Positions 4,560 through 35,297 are shown, counted from the stretch's first letter. The stretch is 64,000 nucleotides of DNA from an uncultured virus (IMG/VR IMGVR_UViG_3300033074_002116) (IMGVR_UViG_3300033074_002116); one strand, 5' to 3'. A program made the numbers and translations. The notes: generated from the letters alone by a model not told the origin.

Positions 4560-6044
4560 ATGACCCACCATACCTTCCGAAAAGAGTACTGGGATCAGAC
4601 CATTGCGTTTGATTGCCCTTTGACTAAGAAGCGGCATACAATTGAGGATTGTTTCCAGAAGTGCCAGGAGAACAGCTATGATTACCGCAGAAATTCGGAA
4701 GGAACTGTCGCAGCCTTTCTATATTGCCTCATAGATCCGCAGGAGAGATTCCTGCATAATGGAGAAGTGAGGGGGGATTTGTAATGTCCGAAGATGTTAA
4801 ATTCGGTTTAGTAAAGGTTGTAGTTGGCGCTGCGGTTGGCGGTTGGTTGCTGTTTTTGGCACATGTTGGTGGATATCCATGACCCGAAAAGTATGTTTTA
4901 TTGGTGACGACGGGCGGGTTGCGACCTGCACCCGCGATGATGAGAACTGCGCCGTCTGCGATTCGAAATCCGATTACGGAAAAGGCTTCCCGAAAGACAA
5001 CCTGGAGCCCCGCAATGTGGTGATGGTCCCGGATTACCGGGCCCGATGCTGCGGGACGTGCGGCAACCGCAAGAAAGAAGCGTATCCGGAGCAGTATGGC
5101 GACCGAGTGTATTGCCTGCTGAGCTGGACTTTTAAGGATCGGTATGGGATTTGTAGTGGGGAGTTTAAGCTGGAGGGGGAGTGAGTTAAGATGGAAATTA
5201 TTAAAAGACGCAAAATAAGAGATGAATTTGGACTTACTGCGCGATGCCGACAAATTTATGATTGTATATCCGATAAATCGTTCGAGGATGCAGATACGAT
5301 TATATCAAGGGTAAATTCAAGTACGCAATATCTGGTAAAAGGTAAACGAAAGATTATTCGCCCATTGACGAAAAGGATCTTCTTCTCCACAGTCTATGTG
5401 ATTAAAAAGACTGGCCTTGTTGAGGTGGATGCCAGCTCTCCTTATCATCCGAGATATAAGAGAAATTTGATTATAGACAACTCGAAAGAGAGCGCCGGGT
5501 GATTTAATGGCCCTCGTAATCACAATAGGGGATTGCGCTGATACGATCCGCAAGTACTCGGCCCAGAGAATTGGCGAGAAGGCGCGTGGCTGGAATGATT
5601 ACATAGTATTCCGGCATCTGCCTTATGTAGTGGATCCCCGGGAGCGGATCGGTGTTGTCCGCCATAAGTATGAAGATGGTGCAGATGTTCTTGCGTTCAA
5701 AGTGCTGCACCTGATCACCGATGTGGAAAAGACGGTTAAGATTTCAAGGGGGAAGAAAAATGTCATCATCCAATGAACTAACCGAGAAAGATTGTGACAC
5801 GCTTATGTCGGCATTGACGAAATGTCAAATGCTCCGAGAGATCGTCAAAAATGAGAGGTGCAAATGCAAGCTTTGCATTGTAACTGAGGATCATCTGAAA
5901 GCGGCTGTACGGACCGGACATATTCTCGCGGTCCTGCCATTTGGATTCCCGGAAATGAGTACGGAAGAGGAGGGCAAGCTTATAGAAAAGCTGCACGATC
6001 TGGAACGGCTGACGTGGCTAAAAGGTAAGATAAAAGGCGAGTGA
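4560..6044 (+). other. Cluster of small hypothetical genes, including Cys-rich proteins (4560-4784, 4879-5184, 5760-6044), a wHTH-like protein (5191-5502) and 5507-5776
   Basis: Overlapping ORFs, several with SD-like G-rich motifs; CxxC motifs. Confidence 0.6.
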
Positions 6045-6427
6045 AGTTGCAAACCCAATTCCATTTCAATGATCTGGTTTTAGCCTTAAAAGAGTTTAAG
6101 CTGCCCTGCGCACCAAGCCGGGAGAGCGAGATAGAACTTAGGCTCGTGCTTTTCCTTGAATCCAGAAAATTTCCTGTTAAAGAGCAGATTAGCTTTAAAA
6201 CCGGGCGCCTTGATGTTGTTGTCGGCCCGTATATTATTGAAGTTAAAAAGCTCGCGGGAAAAGGGATTGTCGAGCAGCTTGACAGGTACTCGGGTTTATG
6301 CGAAGGGCTTATTGTGGTTTGCTGGAGGGCAAGTGACCCACTGAAACTAATCTTTGCGATGGAAAAGGTATCTGCGCGAATACCTGTTGAATTGATCGAG
6401 GTTCGCAATACGTGCAGGATTGTCTGA
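6041..6427 (+). CDS. PD-(D/E)xK endonuclease
   Basis: ESEIE...GRLDVVVG.YIIEVKK...EQLDRY motifs. Confidence 0.75.
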   Translation: MKLQTQFHFNDLVLALKEFKLPCAPSRESEIELRLVLFLESRKFPVKEQISFKTGRLDVVVGPYIIEVKKLAGKGIVEQLDRYSGLCEGLIVVCWRASDPLKLIFAMEKVSARIPVELIEVRNTCRIV

Positions 6428-6429
6428 AA

Positions 6430-9264
6430 ATGGCAGAAGATGTGTTAAGTTATGGAACGTTGGAATATGTCTACGTAGAGCCGAAGGGATACCATGGCAA
6501 TCACTGGCTGGTAAGGGGGCACCAGCCTTGCCTTATGATATCGCGGGTTATCCCAAATTCCTGGTCGAATGGTGTTGGGGAACGGTGCGTGCCGGATAAC
6601 ATTTCTGCTGCCGAACATCTCCAATGGATTATGATGCGGTATCCGCTAAAGATACTCAGCCCGGAGATCTGGTTAAAGAAAGTTGAAATTATCAACGAGA
6701 TAACAAAGAAGAAGCAAAGCCTCAGGACTCTTACCGATTCAGTAAATATCGATCCGCAATTTATTGGAACACTGTTGCCCTTCCAAAAGAAGGGGGTTGA
6801 TTTTCTTTTAAAGACCAATGGCTGCGCTCTTGTTGCTGACGAGATGGGGTTGGGCAAAGGTCATCCGATGGATACAAAACTATTGTCTCCGGGGGGCTGG
6901 GTTAATATGGCGGATGTAAAAATTGGTACACTCCTTATAGGAAGTGATGGTACCCCATATCCAGTAAAGGGAATTTTTCCACGCGGTGAGATGGATATTT
7001 ACCGCGTCAATTTCCAAGATGGTGCGTCGGTTGAATGCACAGATGATCATCTTTGGCAAGTGAATTCCCCGCTACGAAAAAATAGGGGATATAAACCAAA
7101 AGTGTTGCCACTTTGTGAGATACGAGAAAAATTAACTCACAAAAATGGAAATCGCCAACATTTCATACCTTTGGTAAAACCGGTTAAATTTTCCGAGGTT
7201 GCTGAGGCTGGAATAGATATAGATCCATATATTTTGGGGATTATCTTGGGAGATGGCGGAATAAGTACAACTACGGTTATAATTTCATCAAATGATACTC
7301 AGATTATTGAATGTTTGTCTGAATATTTTGATAAAAAAAATATGAGCGTTAAAAAAAGGATTACGGGATGTGATTACGGGATTGTTCACAAAAGTTTTCC
7401 CCGAAGGAATTGGTTGGTTCAAAATCTAAAAAATTTGGGGTTGATGGGGCTTAAATCCCAGACAAAATTTGTTCCGCGTCGTTATCTTTATACTACGCCG
7501 GAAAACAGAATTGCTCTTTTACAGGGGCTTATGGATACCGATGGATATGTTTCCAAGGATGGAATGGTAGTACAATTCACAACGGTCTCTAAACAGCTTG
7601 CAGATGACGTTAAATTTATAGTTCGATCTTTGGGGGGCGTTGTTAAGTTATCGACTGAGATTCCCTCATTTACGTATAAAGGATTGAAAAAGAATGGGCA
7701 ACGGGCATATACCCTTTCAATATCCCTTCCTGGGGGTATTACTCCATTTCGATTAAAAAGGAAAGTTGCACTTTTTCATCCGAAAACAAAATATCCCCCG
7801 ACACGATGTATAAAATCTGTTGATTATGTGGGTAAAAAACGGGCCCAATGTATTGCTGTTGATTCTCCGGATCACCTTTACGTAACGGAGGATTTTATTT
7901 TAACTCATAATACTGTGGAGGCCTTGTCCTATCTCGTAACCTGTCCCGATGGCGGGTTCCCCTGCCTTATTATCGCCCCGCTTGTTACTCTGGTCAACTG
8001 GGAGCGCGAGATAGAACGGTTCATAAAGACTTCTTCCGGCAAGCCGTTTTCCGTTACCAAAATCCGCAGCGGGAAAAAGGGTCCGCTGACCGGGCAGAGA
8101 ACATTGAGTGACACCGGTGGTAATGCACAAATTTATCTTATAAATTACGATCTTGTTTCCCGTAGGCGCGATGACCTGGCGAAAATTCCCTTTAAAACTA
8201 TTATTGCCGATGAATGCCAGCATTTGAGAAACCCGGGATCGCAAAAGACTGCTGCTGCCCGTGAGCTTGTCGATCTCCAGAGTGTGCGCCACCGGATTGG
8301 GTTAAGCGGGACGCCGTGTTACAATCACGGGATTGAGATCTGGAGTATCTGCGATTTTATTAATCCCGGAATGCTCGGCACCTTTTCCGAGTTCAGAAGT
8401 GAGTTTATTTATAGTTTTGATCCGAAAGGCAGCATTGTTGAAAGCAAGCGGGGCGCACTTTATGAGATGCTTTCCGAGAGCGTGATGATCCGCCGCAGGA
8501 AATCCGACGTTTTAACCGATCTTCCGGATAAGACCCGATATCGTCAGCAGATAGATATCGATAAAGGATATTACGAGAGCGAGATGCGGAAGAACCTTGC
8601 CAAACTCCGTGAACGGCTCGAAGCTGCGCAGGCAAGAACTGACTTTAAGGCAATCGCTGAAACATCCGCGTATACTGAGTTCAAGGGCAATGAACGCATT
8701 GCTGCCGGAGTTGCAAAGGTTCCTTACGTTGTCGAATTTGTTACCGCAATGATGGAGAACGAAGAACCACTTGTGGTGTTTTGCCATCATATTGCCGTGC
8801 ATGATGCCTTGAAGGAAAAGCTGGCTGCCTATAAACCGTCCTGCATTATCGGTGGCCAGACCGATCTGCAAAGGCAGTTTGAGATTGACCAGTTCCAGAA
8901 CGGTAAAACCAAGCTGATGATTGCAGGGCTTCGGGCCGGTAATGTTGGGATTAATCTTACAAAAGCAAATTACGTCGTCTTTGCAGAGCTTGACTGGTCC
9001 CCGGCTATTCACCGGCAGGCTGAAGACCGCCTTCACCGGATCGGGCAGAAAAATGCAGTGTTTGCTTATTACCTGGAGGGCAAGGGAACGCTTGATGAGA
9101 AGATTGTCGGGGTTTTAACGGATAAGACTTTAGAACTCGATGAAATCCTGGGGGATGCGAACCGTGAAGAGGGCGCTACGCCGGATGAGCCATTGACCGA
9201 ACGCAACCGGCAATTTGTTAAGGCTATGGAAGAGAGGTTTTCAAAACTGAAGGTTGGTGCGTGA
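6430..9264 (+). CDS. SNF2-family (SMARCAL1/HARP-like) helicase, intein-containing
   Basis: LLPFQKKG, ADEMGLGK[intein]T, DECQH, LSGTP, VVFCHH, GINLT, QAEDRLHRIGQ. Confidence 0.95.
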   Translation: MAEDVLSYGTLEYVYVEPKGYHGNHWLVRGHQPCLMISRVIPNSWSNGVGERCVPDNISAAEHLQWIMMRYPLKILSPEIWLKKVEIINEITKKKQSLRTLTDSVNIDPQFIGTLLPFQKKGVDFLLKTNGCALVADEMGLGKGHPMDTKLLSPGGWVNMADVKIGTLLIGSDGTPYPVKGIFPRGEMDIYRVNFQDGASVECTDDHLWQVNSPLRKNRGYKPKVLPLCEIREKLTHKNGNRQHFIPLVKPVKFSEVAEAGIDIDPYILGIILGDGGISTTTVIISSNDTQIIECLSEYFDKKNMSVKKRITGCDYGIVHKSFPRRNWLVQNLKNLGLMGLKSQTKFVPRRYLYTTPENRIALLQGLMDTDGYVSKDGMVVQFTTVSKQLADDVKFIVRSLGGVVKLSTEIPSFTYKGLKKNGQRAYTLSISLPGGITPFRLKRKVALFHPKTKYPPTRCIKSVDYVGKKRAQCIAVDSPDHLYVTEDFILTHNTVEALSYLVTCPDGGFPCLIIAPLVTLVNWEREIERFIKTSSGKPFSVTKIRSGKKGPLTGQRTLSDTGGNAQIYLINYDLVSRRRDDLAKIPFKTIIADECQHLRNPGSQKTAAARELVDLQSVRHRIGLSGTPCYNHGIEIWSICDFINPGMLGTFSEFRSEFIYSFDPKGSIVESKRGALYEMLSESVMIRRRKSDVLTDLPDKTRYRQQIDIDKGYYESEMRKNLAKLRERLEAAQARTDFKAIAETSAYTEFKGNERIAAGVAKVPYVVEFVTAMMENEEPLVVFCHHIAVHDALKEKLAAYKPSCIIGGQTDLQRQFEIDQFQNGKTKLMIAGLRAGNVGINLTKANYVVFAELDWSPAIHRQAEDRLHRIGQKNAVFAYYLEGKGTLDEKIVGVLTDKTLELDEILGDANREEGATPDEPLTERNRQFVKAMEERFSKLKVGA
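6859..7911 (+). mobile_element. Class 3 intein (351 aa) with LAGLIDADG homing endonuclease, inserted in Walker A
   Basis: Starts GHPMDT, block B CTDDHLW, LAGLIDADG motifs ILGIILGDGG and LLQGLMDTDG, block F AQCIAVD, ends FILTHN followed by Thr. Confidence 0.92.
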
Positions 9265-9271: not shown

Positions 9272-9715
9272 ATGATGAGAAAATTGCTTTTCACCGTATT
9301 TCTGCTCTCCCTCTTATTTCCTTTGGGATCGCTCGCTTGTCCGGATGATTTTTCCCTTGCCTTGGACGGCCACATGGTACGTTTACAGATTTCTCCCCCA
9401 AACAGTACTCCGATAACAATTGTCCCGATTTGGGATCGTCAACTTGCTGAGGGGCTATTGTCGATGGGTTATATTGATGAAGTGCTAGAGTATGCGCCCC
9501 CATTCCATGCAATATTAACGAATACTTCTGATGAGGGATATGCCGATGTTGCATTGTATGGCGTGATGAAATACCGGATAACTTTTGAGAGGTTTAACAA
9601 GTCTTATCTATTGTACCCATATGAAGATATAACGTATGTCTTTTTTGTCGATAACCCTTCTTCCGGATATCTGGAGGTGAGATCTGATATGCGCTTTACC
9701 TTTGCCAAAAATTAA
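9272..9715 (+). CDS. Secreted hypothetical protein
   Basis: Sec-type signal peptide MMRKLLFTVFLLSLLFPLGSLA. Confidence 0.6.
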   Translation: MMRKLLFTVFLLSLLFPLGSLACPDDFSLALDGHMVRLQISPPNSTPITIVPIWDRQLAEGLLSMGYIDEVLEYAPPFHAILTNTSDEGYADVALYGVMKYRITFERFNKSYLLYPYEDITYVFFVDNPSSGYLEVRSDMRFTFAKN

Positions 9716-9877
9716 CGCTTTTTTCCTTAGAATGGAGATAGAAGTACGCTTAGCCGTGCAAAGAGTTGAATATAATAGCGAGAGGCTTCCAGTTGGATTT
9801 TATCGCGATCTCCGCGGGATGGGTATTTGTGTGCATGGCCGCGGCATTAAATTCTGATGCAAGTAACTTTTAGTAAC

Positions 9878-9897
9878 TTATTTATACTTATAATACG
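9878..9897 (+). promoter_or_regulatory. TATA-box promoter of the tRNA/ncRNA array
   Basis: TTATTTATACTTATAATAC just upstream of the GC-rich structured region starting near 9909. Confidence 0.6.
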
Positions 9898-10024
9898 CAT
9901 TATTATTTGGCGAGGAAAGCCCCTCTGATCAAGGATTGCAAGTACTGCCCGTAGCCGAATCAACGAGAAGGGTCGGTGAGGTCACCCGTGTACCGAAAGT
10001 TGCCCGAAAAACACGGGGCTGAAC

Positions 10025-10095
10025 GCAACCTCGGACTGGCGAAGTCCTGCCCCATTGATCGTGGAAGGCACCGGGTTCAACTCCCGGAGGTTGCA
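10025..10095 (+). tRNA. tRNA-like element with atypical D and anticodon arms (nominal GAT anticodon)
   Basis: Acceptor GCAACCT/AGGTTGC+A; T-arm CCGGG-TTCAACT-CCCGG; D hairpin GGACT/AGTCC; bulged arm TGCC-CCA-TTGATCG-TGG-AA-GGCA. Confidence 0.6.
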
Positions 10096-10097
10096 TC

Positions 10098-10269
10098 TCC
10101 TGTGGGAGAAATCTGCCGTCAGTGGCGCGGCGTGGGTCTTAGGTTGTATAAACCGAACGATCTAAACGCTGATACAGGCGAAATGGACGATCATTCAAGG
10201 CCAGTTACGATCATCGAAATTCATGGAGCGCGACTCGTTCTTAACGTTCCCAAGATGCCCACCACAGGA
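10098..10269 (+). ncRNA. Putative structured RNA between tRNA-like elements
   Basis: Closing helix TCCTGTGG 10098-10105 / CCACAGGA 10262-10269; inner GAACGA/TCGTTC pairing. Confidence 0.45.
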
Positions 10270-10276
10270 AATCAGA

Positions 10277-10365
10277 GCAACCATAGAGTAGCGGTATATC
10301 TCGCCGGCACCTAGAGCCGGGCCGGGTCGCTCCCGGTGTCGTTGGTTCAAATCCAACTGGTTGCA
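10277..10365 (+). tRNA. Type II (long variable arm) tRNA, Leu-like, with CUA (amber) anticodon
   Basis: Acceptor GCAACCA/TGGTTGC+A; D stem GAG/CTC with GG in loop; anticodon arm CCGGC-ACCTAGA-GCCGG; variable arm CCGGG-TCGCT-CCCGG; T-arm GTTGG-TTCAAAT-CCAAC. Confidence 0.8.
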
Positions 10366-10366
10366 T

Positions 10367-10452
10367 CCCCAAGTACCGAAAAAAGGGAACGGGGCACCCG
10401 GATCGCTGTATGCGGTTGGAGTTGGCACCGGGTCCATTCGGAGCCGCATACA
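10367..10452 (+). ncRNA. Structured spacer RNA with a loop E/sarcin-ricin-like hairpin and a possible pseudoknot
   Basis: CCCC-A-AGTA-CC-GAAAAAA-GG-GAA-C-GGGG; 11-bp stem 10407-10417/10442-10452; ACCCGG 10396-10401 complements loop CCGGGT 10428-10433. Confidence 0.45.
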
Positions 10453-10474
10453 AAAAATGTATTAAACAGATACC

Positions 10475-10546
10475 GTTGCGGTGGGCTAGAGGCAATGCTT
10501 GCTCGCTTGGGACGAGCAGACGCAGGTTCGATCCCTGCCCGTGACA
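10475..10546 (+). tRNA. tRNA-Pro(UGG)
   Basis: Acceptor GTTGCGG/CCGTGAC+A; anticodon arm GCTCG-CTTGGGA-CGAGC; T-arm GCAGG-TTCGATC-CCTGC. Confidence 0.85.
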
Positions 10547-10550
10547 TTTA

Positions 10551-10623
10551 AGCCCCGTAGTGTAGTGGTCAATCATGCAGGAATTTGGATCCTGCGACAT
10601 CAGTTCGAATCTGATCGGGGCTG
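10551..10623 (+). tRNA. tRNA-Gln(UUG), archaeal type (A1-U72)
   Basis: Acceptor AGCCCCG/CGGGGCT; anticodon arm CAGGA-ATTTGGA-TCCTG; T-arm ATCAG-TTCGAAT-CTGAT. Confidence 0.92.
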
Positions 10624-10629
10624 TTTGCT

Positions 10630-10776
10630 ATGACCGTTGAAAAGATCAGTATAAATTCCGACCTGAAAAAAGAGCTTGATACCTATGGCCCTGGAAGCTA
10701 TAGTGTAAAGCTTTCCAAGGTACTGGGTATTGCTAAGGGTAAAATGGTGCAATGCCCATTGTTGAAGAGAGAGTGA
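10630..10776 (+). CDS. Small ribbon-helix-helix-like protein (48 aa, not in ORF track)
   Basis: MTVEKISINSDLKKELDTYGPGSYSVKLSKVLG. Confidence 0.5.
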   Translation: MTVEKISINSDLKKELDTYGPGSYSVKLSKVLGIAKGKMVQCPLLKRE

Positions 10777-10782
10777 TGCGGA

Positions 10783-11977
10783 ATGATTAACAAAATCAAA
10801 TTGCTTTTGAAAAGACTTTGCTGGAGCGGACGATCAAAACCGCTTGAAATTAACAGGTGCGGCCCCTTTATAAAAGAAGAAGACTGTAAGAAGATAAATG
10901 AGACCACTGAGGAATATTTTACTTACACCATTATTTGTATAATTTTGGCCTATGCTGCATTCTTTGTTCCAGCATTAATTTTGGGGGATAACGTAATTCA
11001 TTTTCCCGGAATCGTTATTATGTGTTCCTCTCCCATAATAGGGGTGTTTGGTGCAATGTGGGGTTCTGCATGGACAAGATCCCGGGAGATTATTAATTTG
11101 TTAAATGGGCAAGCGGGTAAAAAGAAGTGATTAAATGGATGGGGTTATAGAATTGGGCCGGATAGTTCGTTGTAAAAAATGCCATAAGTTACTTGATGAG
11201 ATTAAATTTATTCCCTCCCAGATAAAAATGCACAAAAAAGGACTTAATGGCGTATGCAGAGAATGCCAGAGGAAAGGTTCTCAAACAAAATGGGCTGATG
11301 TCCGAAAGATAGAGACGACTGTGATGGAACGGAGAAACGGTAAAAATTATAATGCTAGGTCCGTATGTAGTTATTTAAAAGCACATCACAAGAATTTGGA
11401 AAATGATCCCAATCGTTTGACTACGCAATTTATGCAAGATCTTATTGGGAAGACAACTTGTAAAAATTTTAATGGTGAATGAAATGATCCAAATCTGGTT
11501 CCTTTCCCCCAACGGAATGCTTGAAGCGGTATTCTGCGGTAGGAGATATGAGATCGTTGCAGAAGGTGTTGATGCCCGTACATCGTTGTGGTGGTTTAGG
11601 TTCTGGAATTCTCTGGAGGGTTAACATATGGTTTTCTCATATAACGAAAATGGCCGTTTTGCCAGCGATATCTCGCGGTGTATTATCTGCGGGAGACCAA
11701 CGCGATCTGATGGTAACGATAGCTGGATTCAATTATACGGTATCCGCGTATGCGGTCCCGAACACCTGAAAATGTTTGAGGAAAAATATTATCGCTCGCT
11801 ACATACACCGGATTGGTACAAGGGGGTTGGCGTACCGTGAATTATAATAACTTAGAGCGTGATCGGGTTTTCCGAATTAAAAATTGTATTGTAGTCGAAC
11901 GAGAGCTCAGAAAAACTGCGTATGTGGGTTATTCAATTGGCGAGGTAAAAGATATTGAGAAATTGAGAATTGATTAA
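10783..11977 (+). other. Small hypothetical genes: 2-TM protein 10783-11130, Zn-finger protein 11135-11482, 11628-11840 (CxxC), 11837-11977
   Basis: ORF coupling, CxxC motifs, hydrophobic helices. Confidence 0.55.
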
Positions 11978-12289: not shown

Positions 12290-13050
12290 ATGTCAAGAGC
12301 GAAAGTAAGCAGTATGCTTCCGTACTATGTGAGGATCAAATCCTGGATTGCCGATCATAAATGCCCTTATTGCGGCACGGATAAAATCACCGTTGAAGAT
12401 GCCAGAAAAAAGGGGCGGAAACATTGCATTTGTAATGAATGCCATGCTGAGAATTACGTGAGCCCGGAGTTGCTGGAGTAAGCGGTTATGGCAGACCCAT
12501 ATGATGTTTACAATGCGCTGATTGATCTCATGTGCTCACGTTGCAGGAAAGATATTTTTCGGGAATGCACGGAACAGGATGAGGATCGCCGGTGTAAAAC
12601 CAAGATTTTGTGTATGAAGAGGATCCTTGTGCCAAACGATGAGAATTATCCGACGGAGTTGCCACATGATTGTGATTGATTATTACACTGCCGTAAGCCT
12701 TTTTCTTCTAACTATCGGCAGTGTAATAATTATCATTGGGGTTAAACAAAAATTACATATCCTGGTGGCTTTCGGGATGATACCAATATTTACCGTTGTG
12801 CTATATTGGGCGTCCCTTTTTGATGCGTGGATTTTGGAGTTGGTTTAAATTGTTATCTAAAACTCCCCATAGCCAAGACGGTAAACCCCTGTGCCCGCTC
12901 TGCGGATCTTCATCAGTAAATGAGATCTTCCCTGAAGGCGATGCACGGCACCGGCACGTATGCCTTAATCCCAAGTGTCCGGAGATATCTAGTAACAAAC
13001 AAAGGAGAGCGGCAGGGTTGCCGGTGCTGTATCCGGATGTGGAAAAATGA
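12290..13050 (+). other. Operon of small Zn-ribbon (12290-12481, 12488-12679, 12850-13050) and 2-TM (12666-12848) genes
   Basis: CPYC...CNEC and CPLC...CLNPKC motifs; upstream TATA-like TTTTTAATAC near 12258. Confidence 0.6.
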
Positions 13051-13715
13051 TCTCCTGCCACATTTCTGATAACAACTTTCCCGAGCTGAACCTTTCCACG
13101 GACTTAAAATCTATTCCAGTTTCAGATACCGGTGAGATCTACAAAATCCTACAGAAATATGCCCGGCAAACGGTTGAGTACCTATTCCTTATTACCCTAG
13201 ATTCCGAATCCAGGATAATTGCGGCACGGATCGTTTGTATTGGCGGTGAAAATGAGGGTACGGTCAGCCTGCATGAGATTACGCGGATTGCTGTGGCGGA
13301 TCGGGCTTTTGGTGTTGTCGTTGCACATAATCATCCAAGCGACGATCTAATGCCTTCTATTGCCGATGAAAAATTTGTCGGCGATTTGCGTGAACGCCTT
13401 GATGCGCTGGAGATTGAGTTTACCGATTCTATTATCATGAATGGTGAAAAGTTCCAGTCGATGTTTTCCCCGCGCAAGATTAAGGAGCGCCGAGTTTCTT
13501 TGGTGAAAGACTGGGTTATGCGACCTTTGTCTTTGCTTGCTGGAATTTTTAAGGGGTGCGGGGTTCTGACGCTTGCGCTGGCGGTTTTAATCATATACAC
13601 CCGTCAATTGATATCATCTGAAAATATGGTGATTCTAATGATTTTGATGTACCCTGCTGGATGGATTTTGGAATGCGTTGTTTCCGGGTTAGATATAATG
13701 TTGGAAAACCGTTAA
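13047..13715 (+). CDS. RadC-like JAB/MPN domain protein with two C-terminal transmembrane helices
   Basis: VEYLFLITLD, VAHNHPSDDLMPSIAD (HxH...S..D), FTDSII; hydrophobic C-terminal helices. Confidence 0.85.
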   Translation: MISCHISDNNFPELNLSTDLKSIPVSDTGEIYKILQKYARQTVEYLFLITLDSESRIIAARIVCIGGENEGTVSLHEITRIAVADRAFGVVVAHNHPSDDLMPSIADEKFVGDLRERLDALEIEFTDSIIMNGEKFQSMFSPRKIKERRVSLVKDWVMRPLSLLAGIFKGCGVLTLALAVLIIYTRQLISSENMVILMILMYPAGWILECVVSGLDIMLENR

Positions 13716-21028: not shown

Positions 21029-21586
21029 GTGATCACTCCTGAGTGGAGAGAGAAATTACGGCAGGCGAGACTTGGGAAAAAAGCGAGCCCCGAAACCAGG
21101 TTAAAAATGAGTGAGGCACATTCTGGCGAAAAAAATAGTTTTTTTGGTAGGGGACACTCTGAAGAGACCAAAAAAGCCATTAGTGATTTTAGGATACAAA
21201 ATGGAATTGCTGCGGGTAAAAACAATCCGATGTATATCAATGGTAATAGTTTTTTACCATATTGCGAGAAATTTAATCCTGAATTTAAGAGGAGGGTCCG
21301 GGCATTTTTTAAAAATGTTTGCCAAAGATGCGGACATGTTCATCAAGAGGGCGAACCGAATATGACCGTTCACCATGTAAATTATAGAAAAGACTCTTGC
21401 TGTAATAAATACGTGATACCATTATTTATTACGGTATGCACCCCTACGACAAAAGGGCAACCTTGCCATTCTATAACTTCACACGATCGAGATTATTGGG
21501 AGATCTGTTTCACTCAATTAATTAACAACAAGTACCGTGGGAAATGTTACTTTACGAAAGAAGAGTATTACAAAACTGATAATTAG
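21029..21586 (+). CDS. NUMOD3-HNH homing endonuclease
   Basis: SPETRLKMSEAHSGEKNSFFGRGHSEETKKAIS (NUMOD3 repeats); CQRCG...VHHVNY...CH. Confidence 0.85.
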   Translation: MITPEWREKLRQARLGKKASPETRLKMSEAHSGEKNSFFGRGHSEETKKAISDFRIQNGIAAGKNNPMYINGNSFLPYCEKFNPEFKRRVRAFFKNVCQRCGHVHQEGEPNMTVHHVNYRKDSCCNKYVIPLFITVCTPTTKGQPCHSITSHDRDYWEICFTQLINNKYRGKCYFTKEEYYKTDN

Positions 21587-23892: not shown

Positions 23893-24054
23893 TCAGGGGA
23901 ATTTCATTGTGCGATGCGGGTGCTGGAACCCGTGAGTCTGCACATGCTCTTCGAGCCCGGATGCAAATGGGTGTTCCGGCACGGTATCCATGGTATGGGC
24001 CTGCTGTTCGCTCATTTCAATTGCACAACCCATAATTGATTTGTCCTTTACCAT
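23893..24054 (-). CDS. Microprotein family member 2 (53 aa)
   Basis: MVKDKSIMGCAIEMSEQQAHTMDTVPEHPFASGLEEHVQTHGFQHPHRTMKFP. Confidence 0.65.
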   Translation of the reverse strand: MVKDKSIMGCAIEMSEQQAHTMDTVPEHPFASGLEEHVQTHGFQHPHRTMKFP

Positions 24055-24055
24055 A

Positions 24056-24211
24056 TCAGTCCCTCTGGTGTTTGCTATGGCACGGGCTTTTAAACCCGAG
24101 ATCATGTACGCGTTCCTTTGCAGCATTGAAAGTCTGACCAGGACATTCTGGCGTGCGGCTTCCAAGATGATCTGCAACCTCTGCAACGCTTCTGTGTGGC
24201 GATTCTTTCAT
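24056..24211 (-). CDS. Microprotein family member 1 (51 aa)
   Basis: MKESPHRSVAEVADHLGSRTPECPGQTFNAAKERVHDLGFKSPCHSKHQRD; follows TTTATTAT near 24236-24243. Confidence 0.65.
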   Translation of the reverse strand: MKESPHRSVAEVADHLGSRTPECPGQTFNAAKERVHDLGFKSPCHSKHQRD

Positions 24212-24610
24212 AACCGAATATAAGCGTGTTGAGGATAATAAAGGTTTTGCAGAATTTTTGATTAGATAATACTCTGGCGTTCAAGGAGTTTTAATCCGCG
24301 TCGAATCTGGTTGTTTGTTTGTAGTTCCAGATCCCGTTTTCTCTGGCAGCCCCAGCATCGTGAGAGTTCGCAATGCTTCGCTACGAAGGAACAGTGTTGT
24401 TTCATTGCACGGATTTCAAGAATGCGGGACTGATCGTTTTGCATCTCAAAAAAAGGGTTCTCTCTTTTCCACATAGCATTCCCGGTAAATTTTTTCTTTT
24501 TCGGGGCATTGCGCCTTACGAGATCAAATACTTCTCGTTCGGTATGTCCTGTGATGCCATCCGGGTTTTCTTGGGATTTCATGATCTTGGTAAATCCCAT
24601 TTCTTTTCCC

Positions 24611-25696
24611 TCACTTTGCCGGGGCAGACATAAACGCAAAGATTACGCGCACGACAAAGATGATTGCCGCAAATCCCAGGCCACCACCAATAATTAACGG
24701 GATGTATTTGTTGATCAGGTTCTTTGAATTCTCTTCGTCGTCTTTTGCCTGCTGTCTCCGGGCACCTGCCTGTTCGTTGTCTTCGATAGTTACCGGGAAT
24801 GCCGAGTCTATCCTAATCCAGGGGATTGTGACTGTTGGTTCTATATGGGGAAGCATTTTGTCTTTGGTTTCTTGGGTAATGCTTTTCCCATCCAATAACA
24901 TTCTCTGAAATTTCATATAAGATTCTACGCGGTCATTGGGATTGGTTTCGTTCCACATTTCCCGGAATCTTTCTATCTCTTTGTGCTGGATTGAGCTGCG
25001 GATCGTCCAGCGCCCCGCATCAAGGATCTGGTCGGTATCGGTCCCACCAACTGTTGTTGAAGAAGTCTGATCCCAATCTGCTTCTCCCTCCAACTTTTTG
25101 GCGATCTCCACGTCCATGTTGCGGTGCCCGAACTTGTAAAGGATGGCATGCATCCAGTCCAGTTCAGACGGATCGAGATACGCAAGGGGATAATAGAACA
25201 AGAATTTCTGGAGCCCTTTTAATATGGCTTCGTAATTTATCGGGAGAGCGCAAAGGATGCCACCGATAATTAATCCGACTAAGAATCCCCATAACCCGAA
25301 GATCAGTATTCCGATTGTCATTAAGATAATCAGGATAATGAACGAGATTCCTTTTGAGAGGAGATTCTTTGGCAGGCCCCAGTCGAAGTCTTCCAGGAGG
25401 TAGGTGCACTTTGAGTAATCGCAGATTACTTTTGCCTGTGCTTCACTCCATAATTCCATGACCAGGTTTATATTGAAGATAAACGCTGCTTTGCTCTGCG
25501 CCTTGAACGCAAAGAATAATCCCCAGAGCGGTTTGTATTTCTCCCATACGCCGTACCGGAAAGCCAGCCATGTGCATATGGCGAAGAATGTTATGAATAT
25601 CCAGAACCACCCGTAAATGGGGATCCCAAAGAAGGGATCTACGATATCGAATAGTCCGCCGAAAAATAATACTTGTCCTGCCATGTTATTTACCAA
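24611..25696 (-). CDS. Multi-pass membrane protein of the morphogenesis module
   Basis: N-terminal, internal and C-terminal TM segments. Confidence 0.75.
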   Translation of the reverse strand: MVNNMAGQVLFFGGLFDIVDPFFGIPIYGWFWIFITFFAICTWLAFRYGVWEKYKPLWGLFFAFKAQSKAAFIFNINLVMELWSEAQAKVICDYSKCTYLLEDFDWGLPKNLLSKGISFIILIILMTIGILIFGLWGFLVGLIIGGILCALPINYEAILKGLQKFLFYYPLAYLDPSELDWMHAILYKFGHRNMDVEIAKKLEGEADWDQTSSTTVGGTDTDQILDAGRWTIRSSIQHKEIERFREMWNETNPNDRVESYMKFQRMLLDGKSITQETKDKMLPHIEPTVTIPWIRIDSAFPVTIEDNEQAGARRQQAKDDEENSKNLINKYIPLIIGGGLGFAAIIFVVRVIFAFMSAPAK

Positions 25697-26603
25697 ATCC
25701 TATCGGTGCGTACATTGCTGCAAAGATCACAATTCCTACAAACACTACGGTAATTCCCAGTGGCAGGACTTTTCCCCAGATACCTTCATCTTTGAGGCGT
25801 TCTCTTAACCTGCGGGATTTCCTGAGGAATATGCCTCCCTGTAAATCCCCGTCTCTCCCTTTGGGAAAATATTTCCTGAATTTTGTATGGTTGAAGAATG
25901 AATACGATGGGATGGGCAGGCCATTGGGGTATAATTGCTCCAATACTTTTCTTCCGTAACTCCGGTAATCGCTGAATGAGGAGATTGGTTTTACTACAAG
26001 GGAGTTAAACTGGTGTTCTCTTTTGTACTTCTCTAGTTCTTCCTGATTGTTGTTGAAGATCTCGCAAGCTTCGCAGAGAGCTATTTCCGATACCGGATCC
26101 CGGGTGGTGTCGAAATCGTCAGATACCATCACGGCATTCTGGCCGCCAAGGGTAATTGTCGCAAAGATAGAACGGTGCACCCATTTGGTAATTTTTACAT
26201 TGGCGGGGAAGTGGACCATGGACCCCCAGTACTTCAGGCATTCGATGGTAAGCTTTTTTGTTTTCCCGAATATCCACGTCTGGAGATCTTCCTGCGTTCC
26301 TTTGTCTGCGGCGGTAACATATCCTTTTACTGCGTTCATTCTGCGCAGTTTGAATATCCATGAGAGCAGGACATACAGAAACATCAGGACAAACCCTGCG
26401 GAAATAAATAACCATAGGGGTAGGCCAATTGTTCCGTTTGCTAAAGTAATTGGGGACCAGTCCAATACGTTCAGGTGCATTGCGCTTTCCGATACGGTTG
26501 CCTGGACACCCCCGATATTTACCTGCGCTAATGTTGGCGTGACGTTTGGCAGCGGCACTTGGTCTGCTATAAGCACCGTTGGATCGGCAATAAACGGTAT
26601 CAT
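25686..26603 (-). CDS. Membrane protein (N- and C-terminal TM) of the morphogenesis module
   Basis: TM-soluble domain-TM layout, similar to its neighbour. Confidence 0.75.
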   Translation of the reverse strand: MIPFIADPTVLIADQVPLPNVTPTLAQVNIGGVQATVSESAMHLNVLDWSPITLANGTIGLPLWLFISAGFVLMFLYVLLSWIFKLRRMNAVKGYVTAADKGTQEDLQTWIFGKTKKLTIECLKYWGSMVHFPANVKITKWVHRSIFATITLGGQNAVMVSDDFDTTRDPVSEIALCEACEIFNNNQEELEKYKREHQFNSLVVKPISSFSDYRSYGRKVLEQLYPNGLPIPSYSFFNHTKFRKYFPKGRDGDLQGGIFLRKSRRLRERLKDEGIWGKVLPLGITVVFVGIVIFAAMYAPIGFGK

Positions 26604-27504
26604 CGCTTCCCCCAGTTTAACGGATTTAAGAAAGAGAAGGTGCTTGGCGCACTCTGCTGTTGCTGCGGCATTTTGACGACCTGCTCATTCTGGTGGCGCG
26701 TGGTGATGATTGCCGATACCGGAGTAAGGCCATCCATCCGGAATTGTCCGCCTGCGGGCATGATTGCACGGAGCCGGAAGATCATATCACACACGTCTGC
26801 GAGTGCCACGTTCTCCATGCCTTCGCTGTGCGATTCTGCCAGAATGTCTGAGAAGTCCCGGGTAAGTTCGTGATACATTGAGATATCGTAGTTGGGGATC
26901 TTGGGAATCAAGTTCATGAAGTACCCTATCAGCACCAGATAATCTCCGATCTTGTCCGGCTCTGTCGGCAGCTGTCCCTCGAACAGCATGGTCATCATCT
27001 TAGCATCGAACCCGGTACCGGACTTCCTACCTCCACCCGCATCGGCAAACCCGCTCTGGTATGCCTGGTCTATTGCGGTCGATGCAATAATGTCCTTGCT
27101 TTTCATGTCGTTCGGAGAGATAGTGCCTATGTCGCCTGCGCTCATTTCTTACCTCCGGGAATTACAAAAGAATCTGATTTCATTATGGCCCAGTCATCGT
27201 TGTAAATCAAGACCCCAACTTTGTCTATAATCTTTTCACAATCCTGAACGGCTACAGCCCACCCAATTATCTCTTCTCCTTTTTCGTCGAGATTGGAGGT
27301 GTATTTTGTCCATGCTTCATTTGCATCCCTCAGGCATTCTGCAATAAGATCGTCATAAGTCTGATTCTTCAGGAGCTTTGATGAAATAATAAGATTACTT
27401 ATGAGCTTTCTTGTATTCGGGACCATTACACTCGGGTCATTGCTCCTTGAAAGAACATACAATGCCCAGTTATCTCCTTTTAACTGATCGGGTAATTTAT
27501 CCAT
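26600..27504 (-). other. Two helical hypothetical proteins (26600-27145, 27142-27504)
   Basis: Translationally coupled to the ATPase operon. Confidence 0.7.
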
Positions 27505-28628
27505 TATTCCTCTCCATTTTCAATTACACTTAAAAGCCGGTAAATCTGTTCGGATGTGCACCCGGTCTTTCTCTGGAGAAGCCGTATATTGGCTTCCCCT
27601 TTATTTTCTTCAATTGCCTTTTTCATTATCGGGATCATTTTTTCTTTTAGATCGTCCCATTTCTTCTCTCTCTTTCCTCTTGGATCCGCCATGTCTTCTT
27701 CCATGTCTGCGGTTTCATCAATAATCCTCCGCGCTGCTTCATCCCGCATTACATCGTATTTATCTGCATATCCTTTGTAGGGCTCAAATATATCCGGATG
27801 AAATGCACACCAGAGATCGAATTTCCTGTCGAAAAACGAGAGCCGCTTTTCATAGAATTTTTTCTTATTAAACCGTAACTTTACATCGGATGAGTTTATC
27901 TTTACCAGGTTAAATCCATTGGCGTGGAATGGCTTGTAGATACCAATTTTAAAATCCGTGAGTTCCCTGACGCCGAGATCGACCTGGCTGGCCATGGGGG
28001 AGTTGAGGCATACTACCCAACGCATCGTCCGGCAGACCGATAGGATCTTGTTGAAGTTTTTATTTTTCTGGAGCGCGAAATCCCTGTTGCCTATCGCTAC
28101 CTGACTGTCATCAATAATAAGGAACTGTCGTTTCTTTGCGCGCTGGAGAATTCTTGATATGGCTTTTGTATCCTCAAGAAGGGCGCAGTTATCCAGAGTG
28201 AAATAATCTAATGGGCTGCCCCCGTTAAAGGCTGCCATATCGATTGCGTACCGTATGGCAAGCGAGATCGAGGTGTATGATTTCCCATCCCCTTTGTCTC
28301 CCTCGACAGTAAAAGATACATCGAGCTTATCCATACCACTTGTTCTTCCCACGAGGAATTCGCTAAATGGAGATGGTGGGATCGGCAGGCACTCGTTAAA
28401 TATTATTGTGCATAATTCTGCCATTCGCTTTACTGCTGAAGGATTCTTTGCCCCGAGATCGACATAACCTTTGGTATAAATATCCATGAGGTTTATGTCT
28501 TTTATTGCCGAGTGTTTTTTAAGAAATTCCGGGTCGGAACATACCGTTATTTTATCGATATCGTCCTGCCCTATTTTCAGAATGCTTTTGCTATTGTAGA
28601 TGGTGCGCGAGCCAAAAGGATCGATCAT
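27504..28628 (-). CDS. P-loop ATPase, putative assembly/extrusion ATPase, with C-terminal HTH
   Basis: Walker A GDKGDGKS, Walker B FLIIDDS, VDLGVREL; C-terminal IRLLQRKTGCTSEQIYRLL. Confidence 0.85.
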   Translation of the reverse strand: MIDPFGSRTIYNSKSILKIGQDDIDKITVCSDPEFLKKHSAIKDINLMDIYTKGYVDLGAKNPSAVKRMAELCTIIFNECLPIPPSPFSEFLVGRTSGMDKLDVSFTVEGDKGDGKSYTSISLAIRYAIDMAAFNGGSPLDYFTLDNCALLEDTKAISRILQRAKKRQFLIIDDSQVAIGNRDFALQKNKNFNKILSVCRTMRWVVCLNSPMASQVDLGVRELTDFKIGIYKPFHANGFNLVKINSSDVKLRFNKKKFYEKRLSFFDRKFDLWCAFHPDIFEPYKGYADKYDVMRDEAARRIIDETADMEEDMADPRGKREKKWDDLKEKMIPIMKKAIEENKGEANIRLLQRKTGCTSEQIYRLLSVIENGEE

Positions 28629-28987
28629 TAACAGAACCCGCCATAACTTTTCTCGGTGAACTCGCAGGCTTCTGCTACGTATGCGAAGAATTCTCCCGAT
28701 ACGAGAATTGCTGCGCTTGCTTTGGGATCCCCGCCCTGCCCCTTTAGTTCCTCTTTTTTCTTAAGGTATTCTTCGTAAAATTTATTCCTTTTTTCTGTAT
28801 CCGTGCAGGTTGAAAGAAGCGATGCTATTGCAGTATCTACGTTTACGTCCTCGGGTTTCATCATCGCATCGAGGAAAGTATCCCAACGATGGAAAAGAAA
28901 AAACATAAACATCTTGTTGGGACTTGCACTCATCAGGTCCGCTGTTGGAGTGATGCTTTTATTTGGTGAAAAAGAAGAGGCTGCCAT
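28628..28987 (-). CDS. Helical hypothetical protein, first gene of the ATPase operon
   Basis: TAATG coupling to the ATPase; upstream TATA-like TTAAATA near 29014-29020. Confidence 0.7.
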   Translation of the reverse strand: MAASSFSPNKSITPTADLMSASPNKMFMFFLFHRWDTFLDAMMKPEDVNVDTAIASLLSTCTDTEKRNKFYEEYLKKKEELKGQGGDPKASAAILVSGEFFAYVAEACEFTEKSYGGFC

Positions 28988-29348
28988 ATACTATATAATA
29001 AAATCACACACGGTATTTAACAGTTGTGTGTGTTTTTGCAAAAATTATTTGATCAAAGGAATTTATCCCTTGCTGTCCTTACGGGCATTACTCCACAGGA
29101 TCTTTTTTTATCCGATGATTTGTGGACGTTGGATCCTTCAAGGACTTCTATGTACCCGCTCTCTATGGGCTCGTTATACCTCCGGTCCGATCTCTCGTGG
29201 TAATTATGGGAATTCCTCGCGTTTGAGGAACTATTTATCCCATGTAGTTTATCGATAAGGATATCATCATATCGGTCAAGGTCCAGAAGATCGAAGACTT
29301 CGTTGAACCCGACACATCGGAAATAGAATGGTTGTTTTTTCATAATTG

Positions 29349-33023: not shown

Positions 33024-33135
33024 TTAAAAAAGAGTTGCGGTGTAAGAAGAAAAAGGTTTGGGGCGAGATGGCTTTGCACGTAAAGTGGGTATTTGACCTG
33101 ACATTGCGTGCAGACGCCGGGTAAGATCGGATTTT

Positions 33136-33929
33136 TTATGAGGTTTGTTTTTTTACAACAGTTAAAAATTTGAATGACGGAAAAAGGGATTTCCCCATAA
33201 TCTCCCACCACCCATATGCCCCAATACCACCAAACCCTAGAACAAAGATCAACGTTATTACTAATAGCGGTACAGCGATATTGCTGAAATTTAATCCGCA
33301 TATAATTAATAATGTAAATGGAATGCCAAACGCAGATCCTATAATCACAAATATAGCGAATGAGATTATTAAAAAAGAGGGGATTGTATTAAGTTCGGGG
33401 TTCATTTTTAAGTGTCCCCTTATTTCTTTCTGTATTCCCGATTTTCCCAACGATTGCTATAATACTGTCCGTTGTGATAATATCGAACATAATTATCTGG
33501 ATATGCCGGCCTTCCAATTACATATACGCCGTTAATCTCCTCCTCCCCCCATATGGTTCCATAGACTGTCGCCGTATATGTATAGCGCGGGGCGATCGTT
33601 TGCCATTCAGCATATGTCGATGTGTCCAGAACGCGCCCATCGGTTGTCTGGATCTGGTATCTCCCGTTGGTCAGTGTCGTTGAGAGAACAGTAAATTGCG
33701 TTACGTGTGGCGTGAATGCTGTTGAAACTACCGGTGTTGGAGTCGGGGTTGGGACGGGGGTTGGTGTCGCAGTCGGTACGTTTGCGATGCCTTCCTGCAC
33801 GCCGCTTGAATGGCCGTTTGACCATGCGACTGCTACTGCGCCAATTACTGCAAGGATAAATATCCCGATCAGGATTGCGAGCCCGATGTATTTTTCTGTT
33901 GGAGTGATTCCATTAATCTGGATCTGCAT
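33136..33929 (-). other. Two membrane proteins (33136-33405, 2-TM; 33420-33929, TM plus PT linker)
   Basis: Hydrophobic helices; PTATPTPVPTPTPTP linker. Confidence 0.65.
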
Positions 33930-34056
33930 GGTTGCCCCCATGTGGTTTAAATTCTTTCACAACCCTTCCGACAACCTCATCATAGGTTTCCCGGGGGTGA
34001 ATCTTGATAGAGTCGAGTTCCGATTTTGTTTCCACGCTCACGCTAATGTTGGGCAT
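33913..34056 (-). CDS. Archaeal RHH/antitoxin-like DNA-binding protein (47 aa, not in ORF track)
   Basis: MPNISVSVETKSELDSIKIHPRETYDEVVGRVV. Confidence 0.7.
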   Translation of the reverse strand: MPNISVSVETKSELDSIKIHPRETYDEVVGRVVKEFKPHGGNHADPD

Positions 34057-34103
34057 AACAACTTATTGTATTGTATTGGTAATAAATGTATTGAGAGAGG
34101 AAT

Positions 34104-34775
34104 TCACTTGTGAATGAACGACAGCAATATCCCAGCAATCCCGGCTGAGAACAGTACCGCCCCCAAGCTCTGCATGTACGTCGGCATGCCCATGTATAAC
34201 CCGCTTGTGTTGGATATCAGCAATGGTCCGACTATGATAAAAATAATCCCGATAAGCCGGATAGACTTGGTGTTCCTCCATATACCGATTGTTATGAACC
34301 CTATAATCATTGCAAAGACAAGAGTAACCGGAATGTTTGCCGTATATGCGGTTATCAATGCGGCGGGCATTAGCGCGAGGTTCCAGTGCGACGTTATAAT
34401 TGCGTTCAGCGGCGCGTCATAGTTGTTGGTCGGGACCGGAGTTATTGCTGCCATTGTCCACGATACCTGATTTCCGCATCCGGTGCTGTCGCAGGGCACA
34501 CCATAATAGGTCTGGCCCCCCAGGAGGGGTGCACCCCAGACTGTGACCTGCCCGTAGCTTGCAGACCAGTTATCTGAATACCAGACGTACGTTCCCGACA
34601 CTTCGGAATACTTTACGAACACCGGTCCGGACGCACCAGAAATCGGAATCGTTACGTTATTGCTCGTTATTGAGGTTGGCGTTCCAGCGGTCGGGACTGC
34701 ATAAGACCCCGGCATCCCCAACCCTATGACGATCATGACAAAGAGGATAAAATGGGCCACCCTATACATATTCAT
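34104..34775 (-). CDS. Membrane protein with an extracellular beta domain and 3 C-terminal TM
   Basis: Signal peptide, beta-rich domain, hydrophobic C-terminus. Confidence 0.7.
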   Translation of the reverse strand: MNMYRVAHFILFVMIVIGLGMPGSYAVPTAGTPTSITSNNVTIPISGASGPVFVKYSEVSGTYVWYSDNWSASYGQVTVWGAPLLGGQTYYGVPCDSTGCGNQVSWTMAAITPVPTNNYDAPLNAIITSHWNLALMPAALITAYTANIPVTLVFAMIIGFITIGIWRNTKSIRLIGIIFIIVGPLLISNTSGLYMGMPTYMQSLGAVLFSAGIAGILLSFIHK

Positions 34776-35037
34776 CGTATACGGTCCTCCTCCCCACCAC
34801 TGCAATAAAAGCAATAACCAGAATGATTTCAAAGATAAGAAGCAGGCTGAACACAAACCCGAATATCCATGTGAACGGCCCGATGGGGATAACCTGGTTT
34901 GCCCCGGTGACTACGTTTTCCATGGCGTGTACAAATGGTCCGAGGAAAGCGTTACAAACGAAATATAATATGATAATGATCACGGTGTTTATAACCAGTG
35001 CCAATCCCGCGAGGAATACTTCAACTGTACTCGCCAT
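34762..35037 (-). CDS. Two-helix hydrophobic hairpin protein (MCP-like architecture)
   Basis: Two TM helices and a charged tail GRRTVYDEYV. Confidence 0.6.
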   Translation of the reverse strand: MASTVEVFLAGLALVINTVIIIILYFVCNAFLGPFVHAMENVVTGANQVIPIGPFTWIFGFVFSLLLIFEIILVIAFIAVVGRRTVYDEYV

Positions 35038-35039
35038 GA

Positions 35040-35297
35040 TCAGACCACCTGGTTTGTAGCCTGGTGTTCGTTAATGACGTAGTTGACCCATACCCCAATA
35101 AAGATCAATACCATAATCCCCGTCCATGCGGTCTGCATAATATTCATTCCATTAACTGCGTCCTGAAAACTTGGCAGCACTGTTATCGATACATTAAATG
35201 CGCGGGTGATTACTTCCACCACTTTGCCCAAAATTACCCATATAACCGCAAACGCCACGGTGTTCCACATTGCCCCGAATAAGGATCCAAAACTCAT
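35040..35297 (-). CDS. Two-helix hydrophobic hairpin protein (MCP-like architecture)
   Basis: Starts MSFGSLFGAMW via an ATGA overlap; NVS sequon in the loop. Confidence 0.6.
   Translation of the reverse strand: MSFGSLFGAMWNTVAFAVIWVILGKVVEVITRAFNVSITVLPSFQDAVNGMNIMQTAWTGIMVLIFIGVWVNYVINEHQATNQVV

Follow-up and report, generated by a model that had tools for sequence, protein, structure and literature searches.

What does a tRNA gene with an amber (CUA) anticodon do in a mobile element whose own genes hardly ever end in TAG? We asked this of a 64-kb stretch (the window) of a 78,547-base metagenomic contig with a GC content of 45%. The initial annotation had described the gene as a Leu-like tRNA in a viral genome that nearly avoids TAG stops, and had proposed that it acts as an amber suppressor on host genes or as a decoy. 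The reading that we favor, with a probability of about 0.5, is that the gene would encode a functional amber suppressor, perhaps one kept weak on purpose and probably carrying leucine, and that the element has cleared TAG from the stops of its own genes.

The gene is the first in a cluster of three tRNA genes:

10277..10365, plus strand: class II tRNA gene with anticodon CUA at 10311-10313 (ARAGORN, Rfam RF00005, minimum free energy cloverleaf, conservation in the related contig L002)
10475..10546, plus strand: tRNA-Pro(UGG), second in the cluster (ARAGORN; RF00005, 49.9 bits)
10551..10623, plus strand: tRNA-Gln(UUG), third in the cluster (ARAGORN; RF00005, 59.1 bits)

ARAGORN placed a tRNA at 10277-10365 (+) with the anticodon cta and labelled it 'Pyl' because of the CUA anticodon alone, as any CUA anticodon is given that name. 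The gene is 89 nt long and CCA is not encoded. It scored 47.7 bits against RF00005, for which the gathering score is 29, with an E-value of 3.4e-9 in a 501-base search using relaxed filters and of 4.4e-7 when lax filters were applied to the entire window; a whole-window Rfam search with default filters overlooks it, and relaxed filters were needed. The lax-filter search of the whole window returned no Rfam family or tRNA beyond the three-tRNA cluster. Using RNAfold, the minimum free energy structure was the class II cloverleaf (-38.4 kcal/mol, z = -3.26) and only 1 of 200 shuffles folded as well. As read from the sequence, the acceptor stem GCAACCA/UGGUUGC is made of 7 Watson-Crick pairs and is followed by the discriminator A73 at 10365. 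The invariants U8, A14, G15, G18G19, A21, G26, G53, U54U55C56, A58 and C61 are all present, G15 is matched by C48, and the T arm reads GUUGG UUCAAAU CCAAC. The 20-nt variable region forms a stem of 5-6 bp with the loop UCGCU, which makes the tRNA class II. The anticodon stem CCGGC/GCCGG (5 bp) closes a 7-nt loop, ACCUAGA, made up of A32 (10309), C33 (10310), C34, U35, A36, G37 and A38, so that CUA occupies positions 34-36 as in the structure of an amber suppressor. By score, cloverleaf and invariants the gene thus belongs to the RF00005 tRNAs with one exception, C33 in place of U33, and A32 and C33 are its sole departures from the elongator tRNA consensus. The cloverleaf, the CUA, A32, C33 and G37, the long variable arm and A73 had all been given in the initial annotation, and that description was exact.

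C33 and the atypical A32 may cause the CUA tRNA to decode poorly. U33 is near-invariant in elongator tRNAs and shapes the anticodon loop, and the non-U33 exceptions cited in the excerpted sources are the C33 of eukaryotic initiators and the G33 of the Candida tRNA-Ser(CAG) that reassigns CUG (PMC5041475, PMC11122139). An intron or another register was rejected as an account of the unusual loop, as the cloverleaf is continuous and no alternative stem yields a 7-nt loop. The Rfam alignment, which paired the anticodon stem with the variable arm, was likewise set aside as an artefact of the repeated CCGG. The anticodon loop also contains one of the few CTAG sites of the window; the tetranucleotide is rare both in the 64-kb window (62, both strands summed) and in 220 kb of a Methanoregula sample (106).

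Stop codons were counted in greedy, mechanical, non-overlapping ORF sets of the window defined by minimum length:

ORFs of at least 80 aa: 85 in total; TGA 45, TAA 38, TAG 2
ORFs of at least 100 aa: 71 in total; TGA 39, TAA 31, TAG 1
ORFs of at least 200 aa: 25 in total; TGA 15, TAA 10, TAG 0

Looser sets contained 6 TAG stops in 107 ORFs (at least 60 aa) and 7 in 116 (at least 50 aa), and three of the latter seven, at 5778-5996, 12801-13061 and 63529-63750, are antisense to better-supported genes. Two TAG-terminated genes are credible, and a third at 45617-45853 (minus strand) is possible:

21029..21586, plus strand: free-standing NUMOD3 homing endonuclease gene with a TAG stop (Pfam NUMOD3, 2.8e-15; PHROG; TIGR01453)
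34762..35037, minus strand: 91-aa ORF with a TAG stop in a minus-strand block (ORF list)

The homing endonuclease gene is oriented opposite to its neighbors and is therefore plausibly a recent arrival. The 91-aa ORF had no match in family scans, and read-through of its stop would add 35 residues, to 34657 (TAG-as-sense ORF 34657-35037). The near-absence of TAG stops claimed for this genome was therefore confirmed, together with the two exceptions that had been named.

It is at stop positions specifically that TAG is depleted. Off frame, the genes of the window contain 1,944 stop triplets, of which 310 (16%) are TAG; given this proportion, 2 TAG stops in 85 ORFs has a binomial p of 9e-5. The observed/expected ratio of the TAG trinucleotide is also no lower in the window (0.62) than in the Methanoregula sample (0.53). 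On these two measures, general avoidance of TAG or CTAG was rejected as the sole cause of the TAG paucity. Gene overlaps had been suggested to favor TGA and TAA; stops overlapping the next start codon numbered only 17 of 107, too few to explain the paucity, and this suggestion was dropped.

No long gene of the 64-kb window was fused or extended when TAG was read as sense, and TAG broke up none of them, which places the window in the standard code. Total ORF length increased from 67.8 kb under the standard code to 82.7 kb with TAG as sense, the smallest gain of the three stops (124.7 kb with TGA and 131.7 kb with TAA as sense). Query coverage against homologues was 92-100% for a 380-aa protein of the window and 73-99% for a 361-aa protein, and no window gene shows a need for TAG read-through. 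Recoding of TAG within the window was rejected on the lack of meaningful gene fusion or extension, and the window does not have the gene structure of an alternatively coded virus.

The gene content of the element was as follows:

759-1409: integrase-like protein (family scans)
6412-9264, plus strand: SNF2-family helicase, 950 aa (family scans)
24611-25696, minus strand: conserved protein of 361 aa; 44 homologues in metagenomes, at 35-96% identity
46542-47006: protein with an archaeal type IV pilin N-terminus (family scans)
elsewhere in the window: RadC-like protein, MT-A70 methyltransferase, Ant-like protein and TrmB-type regulator (family scans)
elsewhere in the window: DUF3821 protein and 1233-aa PKD-repeat protein (family scans)

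The majority of ORFs in the window belong to no family. Pfam, PHROGs and NCBIfam scans over about 105 window ORFs returned no capsid, portal or terminase, and no translation factor, synthetase or release factor was found in the window by family scans. A 374-aa protein (27504-28628) resembles Zot/AAA-type ATPase clusters of Uroviricota in the ESM Atlas, and two ESM Atlas look-ups gave no capsid lead. The 361-aa gene adjoins this ATPase-like gene; its AlphaFold model is confident (pLDDT 80) and mostly helical and had no Foldseek match in PDB or BFVD, while the single-sequence model of a 305-aa protein (pLDDT 48) was too poor for use. The SNF2 helicase is interrupted at residues ~360-435 by an intein-like LAGLIDADG/Hom_end domain; the gene is missing from L002, and its matches in a phage collection were distant bacterial phages only. 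The description of the element as viral is plausible and was kept in the form of virus-like mobile element, given that the window carries no capsid, portal or terminase gene.

The host is likely a Methanoregula-like member of the Methanomicrobiales, because both the DNA matches and a hairpin element point to this order and the closest named relatives of the 380-aa protein (44342-45484) are in Methanoregula MAGs, at 54-55% identity. Matches to window positions 24001-44000 were found in 123 of 301 Methanomicrobiales genomes, PKD repeats at ~70-85% nucleotide identity included, compared with 48 of 284 Methanosarcinales genomes, where almost all were PKD repeats and the best E-value was weaker. 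The hairpin element (33054-33120, intergenic, 50-67 nt) is an inverted repeat like TGCACGTAAAG...CTTTACGTGCA and is 85-90% identical to Methanomicrobiales copies, two of them in the Methanoregula MAG G002 and others in five more genomes of the order. The 284 Methanosarcinales genomes yielded no copy, and the host copies matched no Rfam family. One of the G002 copies lies ~100 bases from a tRNA-Ser gene. Short matches of 29-42 nt at 88-97% to window positions 43377-43430 also occur in several Methanomicrobiales genomes. The 380-aa gene is part of a minus-strand cassette (43465-45700) of 35-38% GC with two to three genes (297 aa; 380 aa, PF25924; a small ORF), which is common to the Methanoregula MAGs at 54-60% protein identity and is found more distantly in many archaea and bacteria. 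The cassette is the only gene content that the window has in common with those MAGs, and it looks like a horizontally moving module. The GC content of the element (45%) is lower than that of the sampled genomes of the host order (53-65%), which counts against this placement.

Stop codon use in the likely host order was taken from ORFs of at least 100 aa in four of its genomes:

G002: 36 TAG stops in 202 ORFs
G296: 21 TAG stops in 195 ORFs
G298: 19 TAG stops in 158 ORFs
G048: 4 TAG stops in 31 ORFs

Pooled, TAG ended 80 of 586 ORFs of these genomes (11-18% per genome), as opposed to 1 of the 71 ORFs of the window (Fisher p 9e-4). The excerpted text of PMC9348620 gives a usual TAG share of ~20% in bacteria and similarly low use in archaea. 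An equally low TAG usage in the host had been named as evidence against the suppressor reading; so far as the host assignment holds, this was not so, with 11-18% against 1-2%. It is quite unlikely that the depletion instead mirrors the real host, as it would if that host treated TAG as ambiguous or as sense, for example as a Pyl-decoding archaeon, with the element inheriting the avoidance and the tRNA serving or competing there. A share of 1-2% TAG stops is indeed the pattern of constitutive Pyl decoders (1.6% in 'Ca. M. alvus' in the excerpted text of PMC4153887), and the host lineage was deduced indirectly, from sequence likeness. Against a TAG-decoding host, the hairpin element, the 123 of 301 and 48 of 284 genome matches and the relatives of the 380-aa protein all point to the Methanomicrobiales and to Methanoregula, where TAG is in ordinary use. 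The CUA tRNA, with its long variable arm and A73, is also without the tRNA-Pyl shape, and in-frame TAG was seen in no long gene of the window.

Which amino acid the tRNA would carry was judged from its body. To our knowledge, the only class II tRNAs in Archaea are those for Leu and Ser. The CUA tRNA has the A73 of archaeal tRNA-Leu and not the G73 of archaeal tRNA-Ser. Its 20-nt variable arm also departs from tRNA-Pyl, and family scans found no Pyl-related family among the window's proteins. In H. volcanii, according to excerpts of PMC9976931, Leu identity lies in A73 together with the extended variable arm, 'especially' the loop bases A47c G47d and, at the arm's base, U47h, and the G73 of tRNA-Ser is an antideterminant against LeuRS (PMC9976931, Giegé and Eriani). 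The variable loop UCGCU of the CUA tRNA has no AG, although this set is that of H. volcanii and may not be that of a Methanomicrobiales LeuRS; the U after the variable stem (UGUC) is present. The four tRNA-Leu genes of the Methanoregula MAG G002 have A73, G37 and anticodon loops of the CUCAAGA form, and their variable loops read G-Y-A-G (GCAG or GUAG) followed by U. A rough MAFFT alignment gave the CUA tRNA only ~50% identity to Methanoregula tRNA-Leu genes and 34-46% to the tRNA-Ser genes. The earlier label of Leu-like was therefore sustained by the discriminator and the class II shape and weakened by the missing A47c G47d and the modest identity to the Methanoregula tRNA-Leu genes. Leucine is our best guess for the charging of the CUA tRNA, with a likelihood of a little over half. 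LeuRS would be the likeliest synthetase because class II in Archaea means Leu or Ser and SerRS needs G73.

The two other tRNAs of the cluster match the codon usage of the element. CCA, read by tRNA-Pro(UGG), makes up 27% of Pro codons in the window as compared to 12% in host samples, and CAA, read by tRNA-Gln(UUG), makes up 39% of Gln codons as compared to 19%. As these codons are about twice as common in the element as in the hosts, the cluster looks like a working translation module. The Leu codons UUA (20% against 4%) and UUG (17% against 7%) are also used far more by the element than in host samples. Given this usage, a Leu(UAA/CAA) tRNA, as the ancestral gene, would have been worth carrying. 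As had been pointed out, the CUA anticodon is one substitution away from Leu-CAA, and this holds for the anticodon itself. The single change of CAA to CUA at position 35 would give the suppressor a natural origin. It feeds equally the alternative that the gene is a relic, a former tRNA-Leu for UUA/UUG disabled by changes at 32, 33 and 35 and now neutral, with the TAG paucity of other cause. A Leu(UAA/CAA) tRNA is the cargo expected from the codon usage, and between the loop ACCUAGA and CUCAAGA, the loop of the host Leu(CAA) tRNA, there are indeed three differences, U33 among them. We consider this unlikely, as every structural invariant of the tRNA is intact and the stop-specific depletion of TAG is left unaccounted for, and the comparison with a relative from another metagenome also speaks against it.

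A search for relatives, in which a 20-mer of the CUA tRNA's D arm was the query against JGI metagenomes, returned five loci, L001-L005. L001, L003, L004 and L005 were rejected as chance 20-mer matches without a tRNA; L005, the only one of these four scanned against Rfam, had no match by E-value. On L005, a 45-kb metagenomic contig, the D-arm 20-mer (within 4990-5100) is followed ~80 bases on by the acceptor 3' strand GGTTGCA. The segment neither folds nor scores as a tRNA and is either a decayed relative or a coincidence. L002, a 3,085-base contig from another metagenome, carries all three tRNAs of the cluster and was the only full-length relative of the CUA tRNA recovered. The CUA tRNA was identical at 87 of 89 positions, one change being at an unpaired position on the 3' side of the variable region and the other, A57 to G, in the T loop, and the anticodon arm was identical at 17 of 17, ACCUAGA included. 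The tRNA-Pro was identical at 71 of 72 positions and the tRNA-Gln at 47 of 73, with ARAGORN calling tRNA-Gln(UUG) in L002 as well. The 100 bases upstream of the CUA tRNA were essentially unalignable and the spacer contains large indels. The remaining stretches common to L002 and the contig of the window were 79-94% identical, and 4 kb that separate common stretches in the window are missing from L002, which is thus a mosaic relative. At 12% divergence, the probability of two or fewer changes in 89 bases is 0.001. Because 87 of 89 bases were kept while the flanks became unalignable and other stretches fell to 79-94%, the comparison indicates that the CUA tRNA as a whole is under purifying selection, whereas a neutral relic would be expected to diverge as the spacers have. 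Taken alone, the loop with its seven bases is too small a sample to demonstrate that the anticodon as such is selected.

Beyond L002, the region is variable. Window positions 9300-11300 were at least partly present in 20 of 22 sequencing runs from landfill, groundwater, wastewater, aquatic, freshwater and estuary samples, mostly at 9-17% of sampled words, and Logan contigs from four of the runs (X2, X5, X6 and X9) were compared with the cluster region. The wastewater run X9 contained near-identical pieces, of 163 and 202 bases without a difference, none of them over the CUA tRNA. Contigs of X5 and X6 cover the bin 10305-10371, and a 311-base X5 contig spans the entire CUA tRNA with 9 differences in 175 aligned bases. 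The dominant X5 contig (depth 111) matches the window to 10302, continues into a different anticodon arm and then rejoins the variable arm. The stem changes in this arm are compensatory, and four base pairs closing a loop of 6 bases can be made out; no fold with a normal 5-bp stem and 7-nt loop was found in it. In contigs of X6 and X2, the 3' end of a tRNA agrees with the CUA tRNA in its acceptor strand but not in its T stem and is followed after 6-7 bases by tRNA-Gln with no tRNA-Pro between, and one X6 contig joins 10094 to 10630 via four other letters and is without all three tRNAs. The contigs indicate that the tRNA cluster is a variable module and a hot spot of gain, loss and exchange. 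Two assemblies, those of the window and of L002, contain the CUA form for certain, and X5 and X6 probably have it as well. Variability of the anticodon among relatives had been named as evidence against a suppressor, and here the outcome was divided: the anticodon is the same in L002, the arm differs in an X5 contig and the cluster is missing from an X6 contig. The existence of relatives with another anticodon arm or without the cluster also speaks for a relic. No relative of the window was found in IMG/VR with five DNA patterns and three proteins, or in the phage collection, where DNA and two proteins served as queries. A pattern search of GTDB genomes with the body of the CUA tRNA and a free anticodon loop had no match, and BLAST against two Methanoregula MAGs found no close homologue of it.

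Taking the gene as a suppressor, the following course can be proposed. The element would produce the CUA tRNA alongside tRNA-Pro(UGG) and tRNA-Gln(UUG), the transcript would be processed as an ordinary tRNA, and an anticodon-blind host synthetase, most likely LeuRS, would charge it. The charged tRNA would then compete with aRF1 at UAG, leading to read-through of UAG-terminated messages. Host genes ending in TAG, about one in six to nine, would gain C-terminal extensions, and the element, whose own genes end in TGA or TAA, would be protected. A32 and C33 probably reduce decoding, which would make the suppressor weak and tolerable. The gain to the element might be damage to, or re-shaping of, the 11-18% of host proteins ending at UAG, or read-through of one or two genes of the element itself. 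It might also be a stage toward recoding, as Borges et al. propose for phages in the excerpted text of their preprint (bioRxiv 10.1101/2021.08.26.457843).

A role without decoding, in which the tRNA acts as a decoy or sponge for, for example, a host anticodon nuclease, a modification enzyme or aRF1, is distinctly improbable. The conserved non-U33 loop does suggest selection for something other than efficient decoding. Such a role would not predict the purging of the element's own TAG stops, no candidate nuclease or partner was identified, and the full set of invariants kept in the acceptor stem, T loop and D loop fits charging and use on the ribosome. Together, suppression of amber stops accounts for most of the facts, and each of the rivals explains fewer of the observations.

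In phages of bacteria, a suppressor tRNA together with stop depletion has been proposed as the first step to a code change. Archaea have one release factor for all three stops. If the tRNA works, the same route to a code change would be available in Archaea, and a leucine-type class II body could be recruited for it, its synthetase being anticodon-blind. The non-U33 loop would be a natural dimmer for a toxic suppressor, and methanogen genetics would gain a natural and possibly orthogonal amber suppressor. In the full-text literature, from which the methanogen-virus compendium was not covered, we found no report of an amber suppressor in an archaeal virus or mobile element. The words 'virus' and 'viral' do not occur in a preprint on an archaeal code that reads all TAG as Pyl.

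Several known systems resemble the one described here in part. The tRNA-Pyl of methanogens (pylT) has the same CUA anticodon, likewise in an archaeal setting; its D loop is compact and its variable loop very short. Its identity elements include G73, or A73 in some cases (excerpts of PMC9976931), while the CUA tRNA instead has its 20-nt variable arm. Alternatively coded phages (crAss-like and Lak, where TAG is Gln, NCBI table 15) encode a CUA tRNA on the element as here, and their genomes contain many in-frame TAG codons, mainly in late genes, whereas the window has none in any long gene. TAG is read as Leu in the organellar codes of NCBI tables 16 and 22, which are mitochondrial and have genuine in-frame TAG. 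The reading would be the same if the CUA tRNA is leucylated, although the window contains no in-frame TAG evidence. That this group of methanogen elements is part-way to, or already using, TAG-to-leucine reading, with the C33-attenuated class II suppressor as the enabling step, seems doubtful to us. If it were true, in-frame TAG read as Leu would be expected in the other 14.5 kb of the contig or in relatives, and the group would then be the first case of an archaeal mobile element with alternative coding and, organelles aside, of a stop codon reassigned to Leu.

In Candida, G33 tunes the efficiency or identity of tRNA-Ser(CAG). That tRNA, one of a very small number of elongators with a non-U33 loop, is a suggestive parallel, since it is, like the one proposed here, a class II tRNA that changes the meaning of a codon; as described in excerpts of PMC5041475, it is eukaryotic and nuclear, has G33 and reassigns a sense codon, whereas here the base is C33 and the codon a stop. 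The closest known case is that of the phages of Borges et al. (bioRxiv 10.1101/2021.08.26.457843), in which, according to excerpts of the preprint, standard-code phages close to recoded phages show stop depletion (4 of 146 stops TGA), one of them with an acquired suppressor tRNA. The element combines the same traits, a standard code, one nearly purged stop and a matching suppressor tRNA, with its status as a virus being plausible only, and in both cases charging is presumed to be by a host synthetase. The hosts of those phages are gut bacteria and here the host is likely a methanogenic archaeon. Depletion was ascribed there to low GC and TAA dominance, while here the GC is 45% and TGA is the commonest stop, and their reassignments (TAG to Gln, TGA to Trp) use class I tRNAs as compared to a class II Leu-like body with C33. 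Recoded relatives are known for those phages and none for this element. Element-encoded suppressor tRNAs, and stop depletion in standard-code relatives of recoded phages, are thus already known in bacteria from the excerpted text; what appears to be new here, judged from sequence, is the archaeal host, the class II Leu-like body and C33.
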